From: Escherichia coli
GTDB lineage: Bacteria > Pseudomonadota > Gammaproteobacteria > Enterobacterales > Enterobacteriaceae
DNA: 8,150 bases
NCBI RefSeq assembly: GCF_048403405.1
Contig: NZ_CP183134.1
Direction: 5' to 3' (one strand)
The position numbers and the translations under genes are program-made. Shown one piece after another: positions 1 to 8,150 of the stretch (positions are counted from its first letter, which is position 1; each line of letters opens with the position of its first letter). The notes under the pieces were generated by a model, which worked only from the letters and a program-made list of their open reading frames with translations, was not told the origin of the DNA and did no database searches.

Positions 1-653
1 TCTGTTTCGATACCGCGTGTTTCCATCGCACAGGCAGACTTTCCGAGGTGAATACCCGGCGTTTTCTCAAGCCCCTGTCGCTCGTATGAACGATGGTCTA
101 TCTCTTTCTGATAACCGGCGTTCGCCAGTGCCCTGTTTGCATGGTCAGCCCATGATGCACGCCACGTCTCGGCATGTGTCCGGTCGTTCCAGTCCCTGAC
201 CTTTCCGCCGAACCCCGCAGGTCCGACAGCCCTCGTGGTCAGCATAATGTGCGCATGGGGATTTGTTTTATCCATGTGATGGAACGCCACATCAGCAATC
301 ATGCCCTGACTGACAAAGTTTTCTCTGACAAAGGCGAGAACGGTTTCCCGTGCGGCATCCTGCGGCAGTTCGTGGGGGATGGCGAGTTCAATTTCCCGCG
401 CAAGTTGTGAGTTCTTCCGGCGTTCGGCCTTCTCAACGGCATTCCAGAGTTCGGCACGGTTCGTACACCAGGCAGGGGCTGTCGCGGGGGTCAGAATCAC
501 AGCCTCAGCCACACCGCTTTTGCGGGTGTAGTCGTGAGTCAGTCCGGTACGCTCATCAAGCATTAGTGAACCAGAACGATAGGCAGCAGAAGCAACGGCG
601 CTGTAGCCGTTGCTTCTGGAGATGATTTTCATACTGAGATGATAAATCGCCAT
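1..653 (-). CDS. mobA: MobA/MobL-family relaxase (MOBQ-like), 5' portion only (N-terminal ~217 codons); remainder lies before the window start
   Basis: Identical to 4075-4727, which is the 5' end of the full mobA at 2562-4727. ATG on minus strand at 651-653. Not in the ORF track because it runs off the window edge. Confidence 0.8.
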   Translation of the reverse strand, partial: MAIYHLSMKIISRSNGYSAVASAAYRSGSLMLDERTGLTHDYTRKSGVAEAVILTPATAPAWCTNRAELWNAVEKAERRKNSQLAREIELAIPHELPQDAARETVLAFVRENFVSQGMIADVAFHHMDKTNPHAHIMLTTRAVGPAGFGGKVRDWNDRTHAETWRASWADHANRALANAGYQKEIDHRSYERQGLEKTPGIHLGKSACAMETRGIET

Positions 654-831
654 TTCTGCCGTAATGCCTTTTTGCAGTTTTCTTTCAGCCCCGCAGGGCG
701 CACACAATCGAAACGGAGTGGAGATTGTATAAGTGCGCATTTCGTGATTTGCCGTGCATTATGCCAGCTCAGTTTTTAAACTACCAGTGACGCGCTAAAA
801 TGCGATTTTTCATCGCGCATGGAGTTACATC
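654..831. other. Putative oriT in the mobA-mobC divergent intergenic region (nic-like motif TAAGTGCGC at 730-738, inverted repeat ACAATC 704-709 / GATTGT 723-728)
   Basis: The motif gtATAAGTGCGCat resembles the MOBQ/RSF1010-type nic core (GTAAGTGCGCCCT as I recall it) and is immediately preceded by an inverted repeat. Position between divergent relaxase and accessory genes matches RSF1010-type organisation. Confidence 0.5.
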
Positions 832-1086
832 ATGAGCAGAACGCTCGAACAGAAGATTGCTGATGCTGAGGCGAGATTACAGCGCCTGAAGGCGAAGAGC
901 CGGAGCCTGGACACAGCGCAGAAGGTCATTGTGGGTGCAGCATTGCTGGCAAAGGTCAGAAAGCCGGAGGAAGTGCAGTTGCGAGCCTGGTTACTCCAGT
1001 TCCTGAAGGCAGAGGTGACACGGCAGGCTGATGTGACGCGAATACTGCCGCTGATTAACGAGCTGGAGGCGCTGCCAGAGCAGTGA
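832..1086 (+). CDS. mobC: MobC-like relaxosome accessory protein (84 aa)
   Basis: Complete ORF with ATG at 832 and GGAG Shine-Dalgarno at 821-824. Divergent from mobA across the putative oriT. The segment QKVIVGAALLAKVRKPEEVQLRAWLLQFL resembles RSF1010 MobC (RKVLVGAMILAKV...) from memory. Confidence 0.65.
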   Translation: MSRTLEQKIADAEARLQRLKAKSRSLDTAQKVIVGAALLAKVRKPEEVQLRAWLLQFLKAEVTRQADVTRILPLINELEALPEQ

Positions 1087-1095
1087 TTGTATCGT

Positions 1096-1155
1096 CCGCT
1101 CGCCGCAGCCCAGCGACCGAGCGTTAGCGAGCGAGTGGGCGAGGAAGCGGAAGTG
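1096..1155. other. ColE1/pMB1-like conserved segment, possible single-strand initiation / primosome assembly site
   Basis: ccgctcgccgcagcccagcgaccgagcgttagcgagcgagtgggcgaggaagcggaagtg is about 85% identical, by eye, to the pBR322/pUC segment ccgctcgccgcagccgaacgaccgagcgcagcgagtcagtgagcgaggaagcggaagag that lies next to the pMB1 DnaA box. Function is inferred, not shown. Confidence 0.35.
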
Positions 1156-1236
1156 AATCAGTCGCCATGTTGAGCACATACGCACGGTTTTTCGACAGGT
1201 GATATGCGCTGAACCCGCATGAATACTGGATTTCCA

Positions 1237-1281
1237 CAGGATTGGAGGGGGTGTATTCGGAATCTTCAATCCTGGTTTTTT
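1237..1281 (+). terminator. Hairpin followed by T6; candidate intrinsic terminator downstream of mobC, or a structured ori element
   Basis: 8-bp stem CAGGATTG (1237-1244) / CAATCCTG (1267-1274), 22-nt loop, then tttttt at 1276-1281. The loop is unusually long for a canonical terminator. Confidence 0.3.
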
Positions 1282-1325
1282 GCAAAACATTGTTTTTATT
1301 GGATTTTTATTTTCAGCACCCCAAG

Positions 1326-1334
1326 TTATCCACA
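1326..1334 (+). promoter_or_regulatory. DnaA box (TTATCCACA, perfect consensus)
   Basis: Exact 9-mer TTATCCACA, directly upstream of the AT-rich region and iterons. Confidence 0.6.
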
Positions 1335-1431
1335 GGCTCGCCGTTAAGTTTTTAAGATCTTATTTTTAGATCTTTTTTTTTAAAACCTTTTTAGGTCTTG
1401 TAACCACATGATTTTAAAGGTGTTCTGGCGA
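1335..1431. other. AT-rich region of the vegetative origin, with two GATC sites (1356-1359, 1369-1372)
   Basis: Long A/T runs (gttaagtttttaagatcttatttttagatctttttttttaaaacctttttagg) between the DnaA box and the iterons. Layout resembles pSC101-type origins. Confidence 0.5.
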
Positions 1432-1519
1432 GATAGGTGGAGCTTTTGGGGGTGATAGGTGGAGCTTTTGGGGGTGATAGGTGGAGCTTTTGGGGGTGAT
1501 AAGTGGAGCTTTTGGGGGT
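1432..1519 (+). repeat. Iterons: 4 tandem 22-bp direct repeats GATAGGTGGAGCTTTTGGGGGT (the fourth has one mismatch, GATAAGTGG)
   Basis: Perfect head-to-tail repeats at 1432-1453, 1454-1475, 1476-1497 and 1498-1519, immediately upstream of a Rep_3 initiator gene. Confidence 0.85.
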
Positions 1520-1540
1520 GTAATCCACAGAAAAAAGGGG

Positions 1541-1570
1541 TTGCAAAAAAAAAACTTCCACCAATATGAT
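1541..1570 (+). promoter_or_regulatory. Putative repA promoter (-35 TTGCAA 1541-1546, 18-bp spacer, -10 TATGAT 1565-1570)
   Basis: Sigma70-like hexamers about 49 nt upstream of the repA ATG. The -10 overlaps an iteron-like half-site GATAGGTGG at 1568-1576. Confidence 0.4.
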
Positions 1571-1598
1571 AGGTGGCGTACAGTAAAAAAACGCCACC
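1558..1598. promoter_or_regulatory. Inverted repeats carrying iteron half-sites; putative RepA autoregulatory operator
   Basis: CCACC (1558-1562) pairs with GGTGG (1572-1576), and GGTGGCG (1572-1578) pairs with CGCCACC (1592-1598). Both overlap or flank the putative -10. Iteron-family plasmids typically have such operators. Confidence 0.45.
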
Positions 1599-1618
1599 AA
1601 TAGCAACGAGCAAGCGAA

Positions 1619-2320
1619 ATGTCAGATCTGATAGCTTACAAATCAAACGCCCTTATCGAGGCAAGCTACAAGCTCACTTTGCAGGAACAGCGCTTCCTGC
1701 TGGTCTGTATCAGCCGCCTGAAATCCGGAGAAGATTCCCCTTCGCCGGATGAACAAAAAACCATGACCATCACGGCTGCAGAGTTTCATGATGCCTTTCC
1801 TGACATGGGACGGCAGCACGCTGAAGCTAGGCTCAAGGAAGCGATAGATCGCCTCTGGGACAGGTCAGTAATCATCAAGAACGAGGAAAAACGAGAAGAG
1901 TTCCGCTGGGTGCAGTACCGGGCGCAGTATTTCAAAGGTGAGGCGAAAGTAGAGATCACCTTCTCCGATGCCATCATGCCGTATCTGACACAGCTCAAGG
2001 GGCAGTTTACGCGGGTAGTCGTGAAGAACGTCTCCAGCCTCTCCAGCACCTACAGCATCCGCATTTACGAGCTGCTCCAGCAGTTCCGCAGCACCGGTGA
2101 CAGAACGATAGCTATCGATGATTTCCGAACCATGCTTGCCGTTGAAGATAAATATCAACAATTCAAAGACTTGAATAAGATGATAATCAAGCCAGCCATC
2201 GCCGAACTGAACGAAAAAAGCGATCTGGTTGTAACGGTTGAGACGATCAAAAAGGGGCGCACGGTTGTAGCCCTGCACTTTCGCTTCAAGGAAGACAAAC
2301 AGATCAAGATGACGATCTAG
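1619..2320 (+). CDS. repA: Rep_3-family iteron-binding replication initiator (233 aa)
   Basis: Complete ORF directly downstream of the iterons. N-terminus MSDLIAYKSNALIEASYKLTLQEQRFLLVCISRL and later segments (ITFSDAIMPYLTQLK, YSIRIYELLQQF) resemble pSC101/pPS10-type RepA as I recall them. Weak Shine-Dalgarno. Confidence 0.88.
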   Translation: MSDLIAYKSNALIEASYKLTLQEQRFLLVCISRLKSGEDSPSPDEQKTMTITAAEFHDAFPDMGRQHAEARLKEAIDRLWDRSVIIKNEEKREEFRWVQYRAQYFKGEAKVEITFSDAIMPYLTQLKGQFTRVVVKNVSSLSSTYSIRIYELLQQFRSTGDRTIAIDDFRTMLAVEDKYQQFKDLNKMIIKPAIAELNEKSDLVVTVETIKKGRTVVALHFRFKEDKQIKMTI

Positions 2321-2339
2321 AATCGATTTTAAGGCACCT

Positions 2340-2366
2340 AAAACGCTCACTGTCGCGTTTTTCTTG
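2340..2366 (+). terminator. Weak hairpin plus T-run downstream of repA
   Basis: AAAACGC (2340-2346) / GCGTTTT (2355-2361) with an 8-nt loop, followed by ttcttg. The stem is AT-rich, so this would be weak at best. Confidence 0.25.
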
Positions 2367-2427
2367 TGTCAGGAATGCGAAGGTACTATTGAAGTGAAAA
2401 GTTGCGTCAAAAACGCTCTGATGCAGC

Positions 2428-2454
2428 AAAAAAAGAACCCCCAATTTTTGGGGG
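2428..2454 (-). terminator. Rho-independent terminator for minus-strand (mobA) transcription
   Basis: GC-rich hairpin CCCCCAA-ttt-TTGGGGG (2438-2454). On the minus strand it is followed by a U-run (the A7 at 2428-2434 on plus). About 108 nt downstream of the mobA stop. Confidence 0.5.
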
Positions 2455-2561
2455 CGGAAAAACAAAACTATGTTTGCGCTATGTGAGTGTGCTTCTTGCA
2501 TTCATCCCTGTCGATGAACATCGACGAACATAACACGATGTTAAACAAAACAAAATATTGT

Positions 2562-4727
2562 TCACATTCCCTGTGACCAACCGCGATCAGGTCTCCTCTC
2601 GGTGGCGTGTGTTCGTGCATCTTCCTCGCGCCGCCATTCGTCCCAGGTACGATTGAAACCCAGCGAGCGGAACAGATGATCCGGCTGTTTTTCTGGTGTG
2701 TTGACGACAGCAAAAAGCGGTGCCTCACGGGTTTTCAGATGAAACTCCATAAGTTCCGGTGCAGGTGATATGTGGCTGTCTGCATCATGATTTACGGCAA
2801 CACCATACCCTGCATACCGTAACCCCTTATCGGTCAGTGCACTGATAACCAGCTGGCTGTTATCGGCTGAGGGAACGGCAAACGCGGGATACAGCGTACC
2901 ATTAAGCCGGACAACACCGCCCAGAGAGTCATCCACGCCCATGACCAGCAAAAGCTGAAGCTGGCGGGTTTCCCGGTCGACAGAACTCATGACCGGCATC
3001 AGCGTCGGTGGCAGACGTCCCTGCGTAAAATCCACCTTCCTTGCTGCCAGTGATGGCATGGCTGGCTGGCGGTCTTCTCCAAGACAGAAAGACTCCGGCC
3101 ATGTCTTCGGCTGGCGGAGATTGCGGGTATGTTGCGGCCATGTCTGGCAAACCTGCGTCAGAAGTTGCTCAAAGGTCGCAGAGGAATAAATACGTTGCAG
3201 TGGTGGATGTTGGCCGATTTCGCTTCGGTCACAGATATAACCACTCCTGTCACGTATTAAATCAACACTCTCAAAGATCCTGGTGCGGTATTTCTCCAGC
3301 TCGTTCCCCCAGAGCGTGTATTCTCCGTTCCGGTTGTGAAGCAGAAGGTAACAAGTCATTTCCCCGTTACCAGGCATGGGAGCCTCGCCATACCCCGTAA
3401 CGACTGCTCTCAGCACCCCTGAATCCATAACGGCATTGTCATTTTTCCTGAGCTGTTCCGCTCGTCGCTCCGCGCGACTACGTTCTGTATCCTCCAGCTC
3501 CTTCCGGCGTAATTCATCTTCACGTTTAAGCAACTGGGCTCTGAGAGCTGCAAGGCCGGATTCCCCCCACTGCTGCCACTGTTTTTCAAATGCCGTCTGA
3601 CTCGCGGGAATGTCCTGTTTCTCCACCTTCCGGTAATGCTGTCGCAATTTTTCCATTTGCTGGCTCAGAGACTGGATTTTTCCCTGCTCACTACGGTATT
3701 CCGGTGCAGCCCATTGCATCAGGGGAATACGGGAAAAACCGGACGAAAACGGCGATGATTTTTTCAGGCTGGCAGCATGGCTCATCGCTTCCTTTCGTTC
3801 GGTGTTCAGCTCTTCCCAGCGTCTGCGCGTCGCCTGCATATCTGCCATCATCGACATGGCGTTACTGGTGAGTTTCCATGCCGCGTTACTGTCCTTCGGC
3901 AACGCTTCGATGATGTCACGTAGTGTGTACGAAGTTGCGTTGTCAGGAAGCCCGATATTCAGAAGGTCAGCCACACGGCGGGCAGGCTCTGTCAGCCCGC
4001 TGTTCCTGAGTTCGGTGCGGGAAATCTGTATTTCCAGGTTAAGCCTGTTAATCAGACGATTCTGTTCGCCGCGTTCTGTTTCGATACCGCGTGTTTCCAT
4101 CGCACAGGCAGACTTTCCGAGGTGAATACCCGGCGTTTTCTCAAGCCCCTGTCGCTCGTATGAACGATGGTCTATCTCTTTCTGATAACCGGCGTTCGCC
4201 AGTGCCCTGTTTGCATGGTCAGCCCATGATGCACGCCACGTCTCGGCATGTGTCCGGTCGTTCCAGTCCCTGACCTTTCCGCCGAACCCCGCAGGTCCGA
4301 CAGCCCTCGTGGTCAGCATAATGTGCGCATGGGGATTTGTTTTATCCATGTGATGGAACGCCACATCAGCAATCATGCCCTGACTGACAAAGTTTTCTCT
4401 GACAAAGGCGAGAACGGTTTCCCGTGCGGCATCCTGCGGCAGTTCGTGGGGGATGGCGAGTTCAATTTCCCGCGCAAGTTGTGAGTTCTTCCGGCGTTCG
4501 GCCTTCTCAACGGCATTCCAGAGTTCGGCACGGTTCGTACACCAGGCAGGGGCTGTCGCGGGGGTCAGAATCACAGCCTCAGCCACACCGCTTTTGCGGG
4601 TGTAGTCGTGAGTCAGTCCGGTACGCTCATCAAGCATTAGTGAACCAGAACGATAGGCAGCAGAAGCAACGGCGCTGTAGCCGTTGCTTCTGGAGATGAT
4701 TTTCATACTGAGATGATAAATCGCCAT
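2562..4727 (-). CDS. mobA: MobA/MobL-family relaxase, MOBQ-like (721 aa from the MAIYHL start; the ORF track extends to an upstream ATG at 4814)
   Basis: N-terminal MAIYHLSMKIISRSNGYSAVASAAYRSG (Tyr at residue 25, as in RSF1010 MobA), histidine motif NPHAHIML, and WADHANRAL, IDHRSYERQG, GIHLGKS, METRGI all parallel RSF1010 MobA motifs. The upstream ATG at 4812-4814 overlaps the nic-like motif and has no Shine-Dalgarno. Confidence 0.85.
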   Translation of the reverse strand: MAIYHLSMKIISRSNGYSAVASAAYRSGSLMLDERTGLTHDYTRKSGVAEAVILTPATAPAWCTNRAELWNAVEKAERRKNSQLAREIELAIPHELPQDAARETVLAFVRENFVSQGMIADVAFHHMDKTNPHAHIMLTTRAVGPAGFGGKVRDWNDRTHAETWRASWADHANRALANAGYQKEIDHRSYERQGLEKTPGIHLGKSACAMETRGIETERGEQNRLINRLNLEIQISRTELRNSGLTEPARRVADLLNIGLPDNATSYTLRDIIEALPKDSNAAWKLTSNAMSMMADMQATRRRWEELNTERKEAMSHAASLKKSSPFSSGFSRIPLMQWAAPEYRSEQGKIQSLSQQMEKLRQHYRKVEKQDIPASQTAFEKQWQQWGESGLAALRAQLLKREDELRRKELEDTERSRAERRAEQLRKNDNAVMDSGVLRAVVTGYGEAPMPGNGEMTCYLLLHNRNGEYTLWGNELEKYRTRIFESVDLIRDRSGYICDRSEIGQHPPLQRIYSSATFEQLLTQVCQTWPQHTRNLRQPKTWPESFCLGEDRQPAMPSLAARKVDFTQGRLPPTLMPVMSSVDRETRQLQLLLVMGVDDSLGGVVRLNGTLYPAFAVPSADNSQLVISALTDKGLRYAGYGVAVNHDADSHISPAPELMEFHLKTREAPLFAVVNTPEKQPDHLFRSLGFNRTWDEWRREEDARTHATERRPDRGWSQGM

Positions 4728-4905
4728 TTCTGCCGTAATGCCTTTTTGCAGTTTTCTTTCAGCCCCGCAGGGCGCACACAATCGAAACGGAGTGGAGATT
4801 GTATAAGTGCGCATTTCGTGATTTGCCGTGCATTATGCCAGCTCAGTTTTTAAACTACCAGTGACGCGCTAAAATGCGATTTTTCATCGCGCATGGAGTT
4901 ACATC
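4728..4905. other. Putative oriT, copy 2 (nic-like motif at 4804-4812)
   Basis: Identical to 654-831. Confidence 0.5.
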
Positions 4906-5160
4906 ATGAGCAGAACGCTCGAACAGAAGATTGCTGATGCTGAGGCGAGATTACAGCGCCTGAAGGCGAAGAGCCGGAGCCTGGACACAGCGCAGAAGGT
5001 CATTGTGGGTGCAGCATTGCTGGCAAAGGTCAGAAAGCCGGAGGAAGTGCAGTTGCGAGCCTGGTTACTCCAGTTCCTGAAGGCAGAGGTGACACGGCAG
5101 GCTGATGTGACGCGAATACTGCCGCTGATTAACGAGCTGGAGGCGCTGCCAGAGCAGTGA
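4906..5160 (+). CDS. mobC: MobC-like relaxosome accessory protein, copy 2
   Basis: Identical to 832-1086. Confidence 0.65.
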   Translation: MSRTLEQKIADAEARLQRLKAKSRSLDTAQKVIVGAALLAKVRKPEEVQLRAWLLQFLKAEVTRQADVTRILPLINELEALPEQ

Positions 5161-5169
5161 TTGTATCGT

Positions 5170-5229
5170 CCGCTCGCCGCAGCCCAGCGACCGAGCGTTA
5201 GCGAGCGAGTGGGCGAGGAAGCGGAAGTG
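5170..5229. other. ColE1/pMB1-like conserved segment (possible primosome assembly site), copy 2
   Basis: Identical to 1096-1155. Confidence 0.35.
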
Positions 5230-5310
5230 AATCAGTCGCCATGTTGAGCACATACGCACGGTTTTTCGACAGGTGATATGCGCTGAACCCGCATGAATAC
5301 TGGATTTCCA

Positions 5311-5355
5311 CAGGATTGGAGGGGGTGTATTCGGAATCTTCAATCCTGGTTTTTT
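5311..5355 (+). terminator. Hairpin plus T6, copy 2
   Basis: Identical to 1237-1281. Confidence 0.3.
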
Positions 5356-5399
5356 GCAAAACATTGTTTTTATTGGATTTTTATTTTCAGCACCCCAAG

Positions 5400-5408
5400 T
5401 TATCCACA
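5400..5408 (+). promoter_or_regulatory. DnaA box TTATCCACA, copy 2
   Basis: Identical to 1326-1334. Confidence 0.6.
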
Positions 5409-5505
5409 GGCTCGCCGTTAAGTTTTTAAGATCTTATTTTTAGATCTTTTTTTTTAAAACCTTTTTAGGTCTTGTAACCACATGATTTTAAAGGTGTTCT
5501 GGCGA
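5409..5505. other. AT-rich origin region with two GATC sites, copy 2
   Basis: Identical to 1335-1431. Confidence 0.5.
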
Positions 5506-5593
5506 GATAGGTGGAGCTTTTGGGGGTGATAGGTGGAGCTTTTGGGGGTGATAGGTGGAGCTTTTGGGGGTGATAAGTGGAGCTTTTGGGGGT
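5506..5593 (+). repeat. Iterons, 4 x 22 bp, copy 2
   Basis: Identical to 1432-1519. Confidence 0.85.
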
Positions 5594-5614
5594 GTAATCC
5601 ACAGAAAAAAGGGG

Positions 5615-5644
5615 TTGCAAAAAAAAAACTTCCACCAATATGAT
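5615..5644 (+). promoter_or_regulatory. Putative repA promoter, copy 2
   Basis: Identical to 1541-1570. Confidence 0.4.
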
Positions 5645-5672
5645 AGGTGGCGTACAGTAAAAAAACGCCACC
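5632..5672. promoter_or_regulatory. Inverted-repeat operator, copy 2
   Basis: Identical to 1558-1598. Confidence 0.45.
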
Positions 5673-5692
5673 AATAGCAACGAGCAAGCGAA

Positions 5693-6394
5693 ATGTCAGA
5701 TCTGATAGCTTACAAATCAAACGCCCTTATCGAGGCAAGCTACAAGCTCACTTTGCAGGAACAGCGCTTCCTGCTGGTCTGTATCAGCCGCCTGAAATCC
5801 GGAGAAGATTCCCCTTCGCCGGATGAACAAAAAACCATGACCATCACGGCTGCAGAGTTTCATGATGCCTTTCCTGACATGGGACGGCAGCACGCTGAAG
5901 CTAGGCTCAAGGAAGCGATAGATCGCCTCTGGGACAGGTCAGTAATCATCAAGAACGAGGAAAAACGAGAAGAGTTCCGCTGGGTGCAGTACCGGGCGCA
6001 GTATTTCAAAGGTGAGGCGAAAGTAGAGATCACCTTCTCCGATGCCATCATGCCGTATCTGACACAGCTCAAGGGGCAGTTTACGCGGGTAGTCGTGAAG
6101 AACGTCTCCAGCCTCTCCAGCACCTACAGCATCCGCATTTACGAGCTGCTCCAGCAGTTCCGCAGCACCGGTGACAGAACGATAGCTATCGATGATTTCC
6201 GAACCATGCTTGCCGTTGAAGATAAATATCAACAATTCAAAGACTTGAATAAGATGATAATCAAGCCAGCCATCGCCGAACTGAACGAAAAAAGCGATCT
6301 GGTTGTAACGGTTGAGACGATCAAAAAGGGGCGCACGGTTGTAGCCCTGCACTTTCGCTTCAAGGAAGACAAACAGATCAAGATGACGATCTAG
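5693..6394 (+). CDS. repA: Rep_3-family replication initiator, copy 2
   Basis: Protein identical to 1619-2320. Confidence 0.88.
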   Translation: MSDLIAYKSNALIEASYKLTLQEQRFLLVCISRLKSGEDSPSPDEQKTMTITAAEFHDAFPDMGRQHAEARLKEAIDRLWDRSVIIKNEEKREEFRWVQYRAQYFKGEAKVEITFSDAIMPYLTQLKGQFTRVVVKNVSSLSSTYSIRIYELLQQFRSTGDRTIAIDDFRTMLAVEDKYQQFKDLNKMIIKPAIAELNEKSDLVVTVETIKKGRTVVALHFRFKEDKQIKMTI

Positions 6395-6413
6395 AATCGA
6401 TTTTAAGGCACCT

Positions 6414-6440
6414 AAAACGCTCACTGTCGCGTTTTTCTTG
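6414..6440 (+). terminator. Weak hairpin plus T-run downstream of repA, copy 2
   Basis: Identical to 2340-2366. Confidence 0.25.
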
Positions 6441-6501
6441 TGTCAGGAATGCGAAGGTACTATTGAAGTGAAAAGTTGCGTCAAAAACGCTCTGATGCAG
6501 C

Positions 6502-6528
6502 AAAAAAAGAACCCCCAATTTTTGGGGG
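6502..6528 (-). terminator. Rho-independent terminator for mobA, copy 2
   Basis: Identical to 2428-2454. Confidence 0.5.
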
Positions 6529-6635
6529 CGGAAAAACAAAACTATGTTTGCGCTATGTGAGTGTGCTTCTTGCATTCATCCCTGTCGATGAACATCGACG
6601 AACATAACACGATGTTAAACAAAACAAAATATTGT

Positions 6636-8150
6636 TCACATTCCCTGTGACCAACCGCGATCAGGTCTCCTCTCGGTGGCGTGTGTTCGTGCATCTTCCT
6701 CGCGCCGCCATTCGTCCCAGGTACGATTGAAACCCAGCGAGCGGAACAGATGATCCGGCTGTTTTTCTGGTGTGTTGACGACAGCAAAAAGCGGTGCCTC
6801 ACGGGTTTTCAGATGAAACTCCATAAGTTCCGGTGCAGGTGATATGTGGCTGTCTGCATCATGATTTACGGCAACACCATACCCTGCATACCGTAACCCC
6901 TTATCGGTCAGTGCACTGATAACCAGCTGGCTGTTATCGGCTGAGGGAACGGCAAACGCGGGATACAGCGTACCATTAAGCCGGACAACACCGCCCAGAG
7001 AGTCATCCACGCCCATGACCAGCAAAAGCTGAAGCTGGCGGGTTTCCCGGTCGACAGAACTCATGACCGGCATCAGCGTCGGTGGCAGACGTCCCTGCGT
7101 AAAATCCACCTTCCTTGCTGCCAGTGATGGCATGGCTGGCTGGCGGTCTTCTCCAAGACAGAAAGACTCCGGCCATGTCTTCGGCTGGCGGAGATTGCGG
7201 GTATGTTGCGGCCATGTCTGGCAAACCTGCGTCAGAAGTTGCTCAAAGGTCGCAGAGGAATAAATACGTTGCAGTGGTGGATGTTGGCCGATTTCGCTTC
7301 GGTCACAGATATAACCACTCCTGTCACGTATTAAATCAACACTCTCAAAGATCCTGGTGCGGTATTTCTCCAGCTCGTTCCCCCAGAGCGTGTATTCTCC
7401 GTTCCGGTTGTGAAGCAGAAGGTAACAAGTCATTTCCCCGTTACCAGGCATGGGAGCCTCGCCATACCCCGTAACGACTGCTCTCAGCACCCCTGAATCC
7501 ATAACGGCATTGTCATTTTTCCTGAGCTGTTCCGCTCGTCGCTCCGCGCGACTACGTTCTGTATCCTCCAGCTCCTTCCGGCGTAATTCATCTTCACGTT
7601 TAAGCAACTGGGCTCTGAGAGCTGCAAGGCCGGATTCCCCCCACTGCTGCCACTGTTTTTCAAATGCCGTCTGACTCGCGGGAATGTCCTGTTTCTCCAC
7701 CTTCCGGTAATGCTGTCGCAATTTTTCCATTTGCTGGCTCAGAGACTGGATTTTTCCCTGCTCACTACGGTATTCCGGTGCAGCCCATTGCATCAGGGGA
7801 ATACGGGAAAAACCGGACGAAAACGGCGATGATTTTTTCAGGCTGGCAGCATGGCTCATCGCTTCCTTTCGTTCGGTGTTCAGCTCTTCCCAGCGTCTGC
7901 GCGTCGCCTGCATATCTGCCATCATCGACATGGCGTTACTGGTGAGTTTCCATGCCGCGTTACTGTCCTTCGGCAACGCTTCGATGATGTCGCGTAGTGT
8001 GTACGAAGTTGCGTTGTCAGGAAGCCCGATATTCAGAAGGTCGAGCCACACGGCGGGCAGGCTCTGTCGGCCCCGCTGTTCCTGAGTTCGGTGCGGGAAA
8101 TCTGTATTTCCAGGTTAGGCCTGTTAATCAGACGATTCTGTTCGCCGCGT
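6636..8150 (-). CDS. mobA: MobA relaxase, copy 2; 5' end runs off the window and carries apparent frameshifts near 8043 and 8071 relative to copy 1
   Basis: Identical to copy 1 up to about 7991. The ORF track ends at a GTG at 8051 because two 1-bp insertions shift the frame. I suspect these are consensus errors at a contig end rather than a true pseudogene. Confidence 0.6.

Follow-up and report, generated by a model that had tools for sequence, protein, structure and literature searches.

The closest described counterparts of the sequence analysed here are small plasmids that leave an assembler as contigs of about twice their true length. In the benchmark of Wick and Holt, small plasmids reached a contiguity of ~200%, most often with Canu and NextDenovo and also with other assemblers (PMC6966772), and an E. 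coli plasmid of ~4 kb came out of Canu at twice its size in the MicroPIPE study (PMC8235852). Such 'doubled plasmids' are among the known ways in which assembly fails, and circular contigs need to be rotated for polishers to repair their start and end (Wick et al. 2023, PMC9980784). Consensus errors in ONT assemblies of E. coli have been described as transitions in 97% of cases, mainly A>G and T>C, located in CC(A/T)GG (PMC8235852).

Two deposited records are particularly close, as both hold two tandem units of the plasmid family to which our sequence belongs. One, plasmid pU13A_D of E. coli U13A (NZ_CP035481.1), was deposited at a length of 8166 bp as a homodimer whose MobQ/MobC/Rep unit measures ~4.08 kb. 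When compared with the 4082-bp monomeric relative NZ_CP030114.1, all of its 1-bp indel discrepancies (8/8) fall in 179-762 and 8001-8155, close to the ends of the record, and two SNPs, common to both copies, are all that differs in the central ~7.2 kb. The record has a 6-bp overlap between start and end (AGTGAA), and in PLSDB, where the gene table leaves out pseudogenes, it is listed with one mobQ and one rep only. The other record, NZ_CP100746.1 from Salmonella Newport (8138 bp), joins two clearly different members of the family as a heterodimer, with 381 differences spread over the whole unit and intact proteins encoded by both. Its Rep, MobQ and MobC proteins form two different sets, and the record may be a true cointegrate or the product of chimeric assembly.

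The window, by which we mean the whole stretch of 8,150 nucleotides under study, shares with the doubled contigs of small plasmids (PMC6966772, PMC8235852, PMC9980784) the exact two units of a ~4-kb plasmid, the discrepancies at the linearisation point and the combination of transitions with 1-bp indels, but differs from them in being affected at one end only. Like NZ_CP035481.1 it is a homodimer of the same family with discrepancies near the record ends; that record, however, has 1-bp indels only, at both ends, together with the overlap of 6 bp, whereas the window has a clean junction, is affected at its 3' end only and includes three substitutions. With NZ_CP100746.1 it has in common that two tandem units of the family stand in one circular record, yet its five private differences form one terminal patch, and we rejected the analogy with this heterodimer because the differences there are dispersed (381) and the genes intact. 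The window resembles records of the NZ_CP035481.1 kind and not those of the NZ_CP100746.1 kind. It also shares A>G substitutions in an enterobacterial plasmid with the ONT consensus errors reported at Dcm motifs of Enterobacteriaceae (PMC6591954, PMC8235852), but those errors sit in CCWGG and the differences in the window do not, the nearest being 4 nt outside.

The window is a head-to-tail dimer of a common 4,074-bp plasmid

In an end-to-end global alignment, the window resolves into two head-to-tail units of a MobQ/MobC/Rep plasmid of 4,074 bp, an exact dimer. Copy 1 (1-4074; 4074 bp) is reference-like, and copy 2 (4075-8150; 4076 bp) is the same as copy 1 through 7991. Since the length equals 2 x 4074 + 2 bp, we infer that the window is the whole record. 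About ten monomers of 4074 bp are 99.9% identical to the unit in DNA, and the natural length of the unit is thus that of copy 1. By sequence alone, the doubled record at 1-8150 fits both dimers present in the cell and pure doubling by the assembler.

The unit is a member of a very common family of mobilisable plasmids of ~4.06-4.08 kb in E. coli and Salmonella. BLAST searches matched it to 619 records in PLSDB, and 567 of the 5426 complete E. coli genomes have a plasmid that matches it. The assignment to this family rests on a MobQ domain above its cut-off, the presence of MobC and of a Rep initiator, and a sequence nearly identical to that of typed plasmids, relatives such as CP082422.2 being typed rep_cluster_1778/MOBQ in PLSDB. 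All three proteins of the window, MobQ, MobC and Rep, are identical to the annotated proteins of NZ_CP145702.1, an E. coli plasmid of 4074 bp.

The gene mobC, encoding the relaxase accessory protein (WP_000091744.1), lies on the plus strand at 832-1086 and again at 4906-5160. On the same strand, the replication initiation protein gene is found at 1619-2320 and 5693-6394; its product (WP_001281396.1) resembles RepM/RepE. Four iteron-like direct repeats of 22 bp precede rep (1427-1520; second set 5501-5594), and their location beside this gene suggests that they are iterons. The relaxase gene mobQ lies on the minus strand and crosses the junction between the copies. At 2562-4727 it is the sole intact and complete relaxase gene of the linear record, encoding a protein of 721 aa (identical to WP_001029349.1) that matches the NCBIfam model MobQ NF041496 at 264 bits (cut-off 200) over residues 1-193, and the second copy (6636-8150, minus strand) runs off the end of the record. 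The longest open reading frame over mobQ, 2562-4814 on the minus strand (750 aa), begins 29 codons before the annotated start of relatives; it is the annotated start at 4727 that yields the protein identical to WP_001029349.1.

Five differences between the copies lie within the last 159 bp

A global alignment of 1-4074 with 4075-8150 revealed exactly five differences, all within the last 159 bp, while 1-3917 is the same as 4075-7991. A preliminary description of this DNA had placed the divergence in the last ~160 bp, following ~3900 bp of identity, and the alignment bears this out. The positions it itemised and the two 1-bp insertions it counted are likewise correct, but of the four A->G changes it announced there are only three (7992, 8069 and 8118).

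On the plus strand, the first difference is an A at copy-1 position 3918 that is replaced by G at 7992 (GTCA>GTCG); it is synonymous in the relaxase gene, as had been described, and changes mobQ codon 270 from CGT to CGC. At 8043, a single G is inserted (GGTC^AGCC > GGTCGAGCC), resulting in a frameshift near mobQ codon 254. A second A>G change at 8069 (copy-1 3994; GTCAGCC>GTCGGCC) would give L245P in MobQ and is followed at 8071-8074 by a run of CCCC in place of the CCC at 3996-3998, a homopolymer gain of one base with a frameshift near codon 244-245. The last difference, A>G at 8118 (copy-1 4042), would give L229P and lies 4 nt 3' of a CCAGG at 8110-8114. Both insertions do shift the frame of the copy-2 relaxase, near codons 245 and 254, in line with the preliminary description; the CCAGG that it placed beside 8118 is present, yet the change lies beyond this site and not inside it.

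Altogether, L229P, L245P, a synonymous change and both frameshifts fall within 42 codons of MobQ in copy 2, and on a circular reading of the record the copy-2 protein is frameshifted and meets a stop at ~residue 257. Two frameshifts and two Leu>Pro exchanges in a conserved relaxase gene are a pattern that selection would not allow. The probability that all five differences land by chance in the last 157 of the 4074 positions is ~8.5e-8, and for five random sites to span no more than 124 bp it is ~4e-6. Expressed as rates between the copies, there are 0 differences in the 3917 bp outside the terminal stretch versus 5 in the 159 bp inside it (~3%). Since the rest of the record is clean (0/3917 bp, and no indels versus the nearest relative), the local rate of ~3% is an end effect.

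Copy 2 is the divergent copy

Over its terminal 225 bp, copy 1 has 100% identity with four independent plasmids of E. coli and Salmonella; aligned with each of these, copy 2 has 3 mismatches and 2 gaps in the same stretch. Searches for the individual alleles in PLSDB gave the same picture. None of the 396 records matching a 61-mer around 7992 has G7992 (best 60/61), G8118 is absent from all 381 records matching a 61-mer around that position (best 60/61), and the copy-2 alleles at 8043, 8069 and 8071-74 occur in 0/174 records matching an 89-mer (best 86/89). The 201-bp end of copy 2 matched 398 records in PLSDB and 432 in E. coli RefSeq, none with the copy-2 alleles; the best identity was 97.5% in both collections, which over a query of 201 bp corresponds to precisely the five differences.

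Beyond plasmid collections, a 40-mer of the copy-2 haplotype had no exact match among viral, GTDB-genome or JGI-metagenome contigs, and a pattern neutral at the five variable sites retrieved two metagenome contigs, both with the copy-1 haplotype. No exact protein match was found for the truncated copy-2 open reading frame of 471 aa. Judged by these searches, the copy-2 alleles are private to the last 159 bp of one record. A donor that could have supplied the copy-2 patch by recombination or gene conversion was considered and rejected, since no family member has any copy-2 allele.

A contig terminus that probably escaped correction

We consider the five copy-2 differences to be, with a probability of about 0.88, uncorrected consensus or polishing errors at a contig terminus and not biology. 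The preliminary description had favoured this reading, which is strengthened by the finding that the copy-2 alleles are private, disrupt an open reading frame and lie at the linearisation point of an otherwise clean record, with a parallel in NZ_CP035481.1. Discrepancies occur only by the linear end of the record, the remainder being clean; the variant alleles are found in no other record, while the other copy matches independent sequences; and the spectrum is of the type that reads produce (1-bp indels, a homopolymer, transitions) and breaks a conserved reading frame. The terminal difference rate of ~3% with two 1-bp indels also matches an uncorrected draft long-read consensus. The record is most likely a small plasmid assembled from long reads as a doubled contig (~200% of the unit), a scenario in which the platform used and the step of assembly or polishing responsible are inferred.

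Such an outcome could arise as follows. Once a circular contig has been linearised, no read can be aligned past its ends, and in a doubled contig the reads of the last ~150 bases would align better, and at full length, over the internal junction (3918-4074 into 4075 onwards). As the internal junction would take these reads, the terminus would be left with little or no polishing evidence; the last ~160 bp would have received little or no effective coverage in consensus and polishing and may have kept errors at draft level, that is three A>G changes, one inserted G and one homopolymer gain. If the contig was initially longer than two units, trimming of the overlap would leave the exact two-unit length and the clean junction, and trimming from the start would retain the low-quality 3' end, so that only one end would carry errors. 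Two features count against an artefact, namely that errors are seen at the 3' end only, with the first 160 bp clean, and that the last 32 bp are clean, the error rate showing no steady rise toward the end.

With the five differences read as uncorrected errors, copy 1 gives the sequence of the true plasmid, a MobQ/MobC/Rep replicon of 4074 bp whose relaxase gene is intact, and the copy-2 mobQ pseudogene is absent from the cell. The record should be collapsed to the 4074-bp monomer with the copy-1 sequence, and a 'mobQ pseudogene', a 'heterogeneous dimer' or a plasmid size of 8.15 kb taken from it would be spurious. We take the observation to be an artefact of assembly, ordinary and well understood, that affects a very common plasmid and holds no new biology. 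Its importance is mainly one of data hygiene: together with NZ_CP035481.1, the window indicates that public collections still contain doubled-plasmid records whose ends were left unpolished, and such records can raise the numbers of pseudogenes, SNPs and plasmid sizes above their true values.

Alternative explanations

Small plasmids do form dimers in vivo. The window could be a real dimer from the cell in which one unit gained a patch of five mutations that inactivates mobQ, the loss of this copy being tolerable as the other mobQ is intact and supplies the relaxase; databases indeed hold dimer-length records of this plasmid family. We regard this as improbable, although it fares best among the alternatives. 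The five changes would have arisen within 127 bp with none in the other 3917 bp, and the cluster would have to fall exactly at an arbitrary record end, a coincidence of ~4% even if a cluster is granted. In addition, the alleles are found nowhere else in PLSDB or E. coli RefSeq, transitions and 1-bp indels, one of them in a homopolymer, are the signature of read errors, and the comparator dimer NZ_CP035481.1 has the same errors at its ends. Slightly less probable still is a variant of this idea in which one unit of a real dimer underwent strand-asymmetric local hypermutation (A>G and small insertions, mostly at GTCA/AGCC), disabling the C-terminal two-thirds of one MobQ. If true, it would be a sign of a mutational process that acts on a plasmid multimer locally and in specific sequence contexts.

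A further alternative is base modification. According to this explanation, which the preliminary description had raised in the form of modification-related miscalls, Dcm, Dam or other methylation disturbed the basecalls at particular motifs. Published ONT consensus errors in E. coli are mostly A>G and T>C changes that fall on CC(A/T)GG (PMC8235852, PMC6591954), and position 8118 is 4 nt from such a site. Moreover, 3/4 GTCA sites and 3/4 AGCC sites in the terminal stretch are changed (P ~0.007 in each case, for motifs picked after seeing the data), an enrichment that, together with the single substitution type, A>G on one strand in all three cases, gives a hint of systematic miscalling. No difference, however, lies inside CCWGG or GATC. 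The sole CCAGG of the terminal stretch is the one at 8110-8114 (4034-4038 in copy 1), and four of the five differences are at least 40 nt away from it; GATC is absent from the unit after 3276 and from the last 170 bp. Likewise, the eight CCWGG sites of the unit are free of discrepancies between the copies, and its 21 GTCA and 24 AGCC sites show none outside the terminal stretch. Dcm and Dam were therefore rejected as the cause of the clustering, the changes being outside the motifs and the other motif sites clean. A shared methylation-like motif GTCA/AGCC (or TMAGCC) was discarded as well, as it is a post hoc choice and remains unaffected at least 20 times elsewhere in the unit. As an explanation of the cluster, modification is thus very improbable; at most, it is a bias that contributes on top of the end effect.

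Equally remote is the idea that two co-resident variants, the wild type and a mobQ mutant or related plasmid, were threaded into one contig by the assembler or by recombination, for which the joining of two different units in NZ_CP100746.1 (381 differences) offers a precedent, since the differences there are unit-wide and the proteins intact, whereas the window has five private alleles in 127 bp that include frameshifts in copy-2 mobQ, and no known family member carries a copy-2 allele and could serve as donor.

Further features of the unit

BLAST searches with the whole window and with the unit gave no 100% or 8150-bp match in PLSDB or among the E. coli RefSeq complete genomes. Versus the 4074-bp monomer NZ_CP145702.1, copy 1 shows three SNPs (740, 1241 and 1286) and zero indels. 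These SNPs are present in both copies (4814, 5315 and 5360 in copy 2), with T, A and A versus C, G and C in relatives, and all three sites fall outside the three annotated genes. The T/A/A alleles were found in no PLSDB relative, the top match being 99.5% over 631 bp, and they may be true lineage SNPs or consistent consensus errors.

A perfect palindrome with a 13-bp stem and a 6-nt loop (CAGAAGCAACGGC GCTGTA GCCGTTGCTTCTG) is present at 587-618 and at 4661-4692; it sits in the 5' end of mobQ, at approximately codons 12-23.
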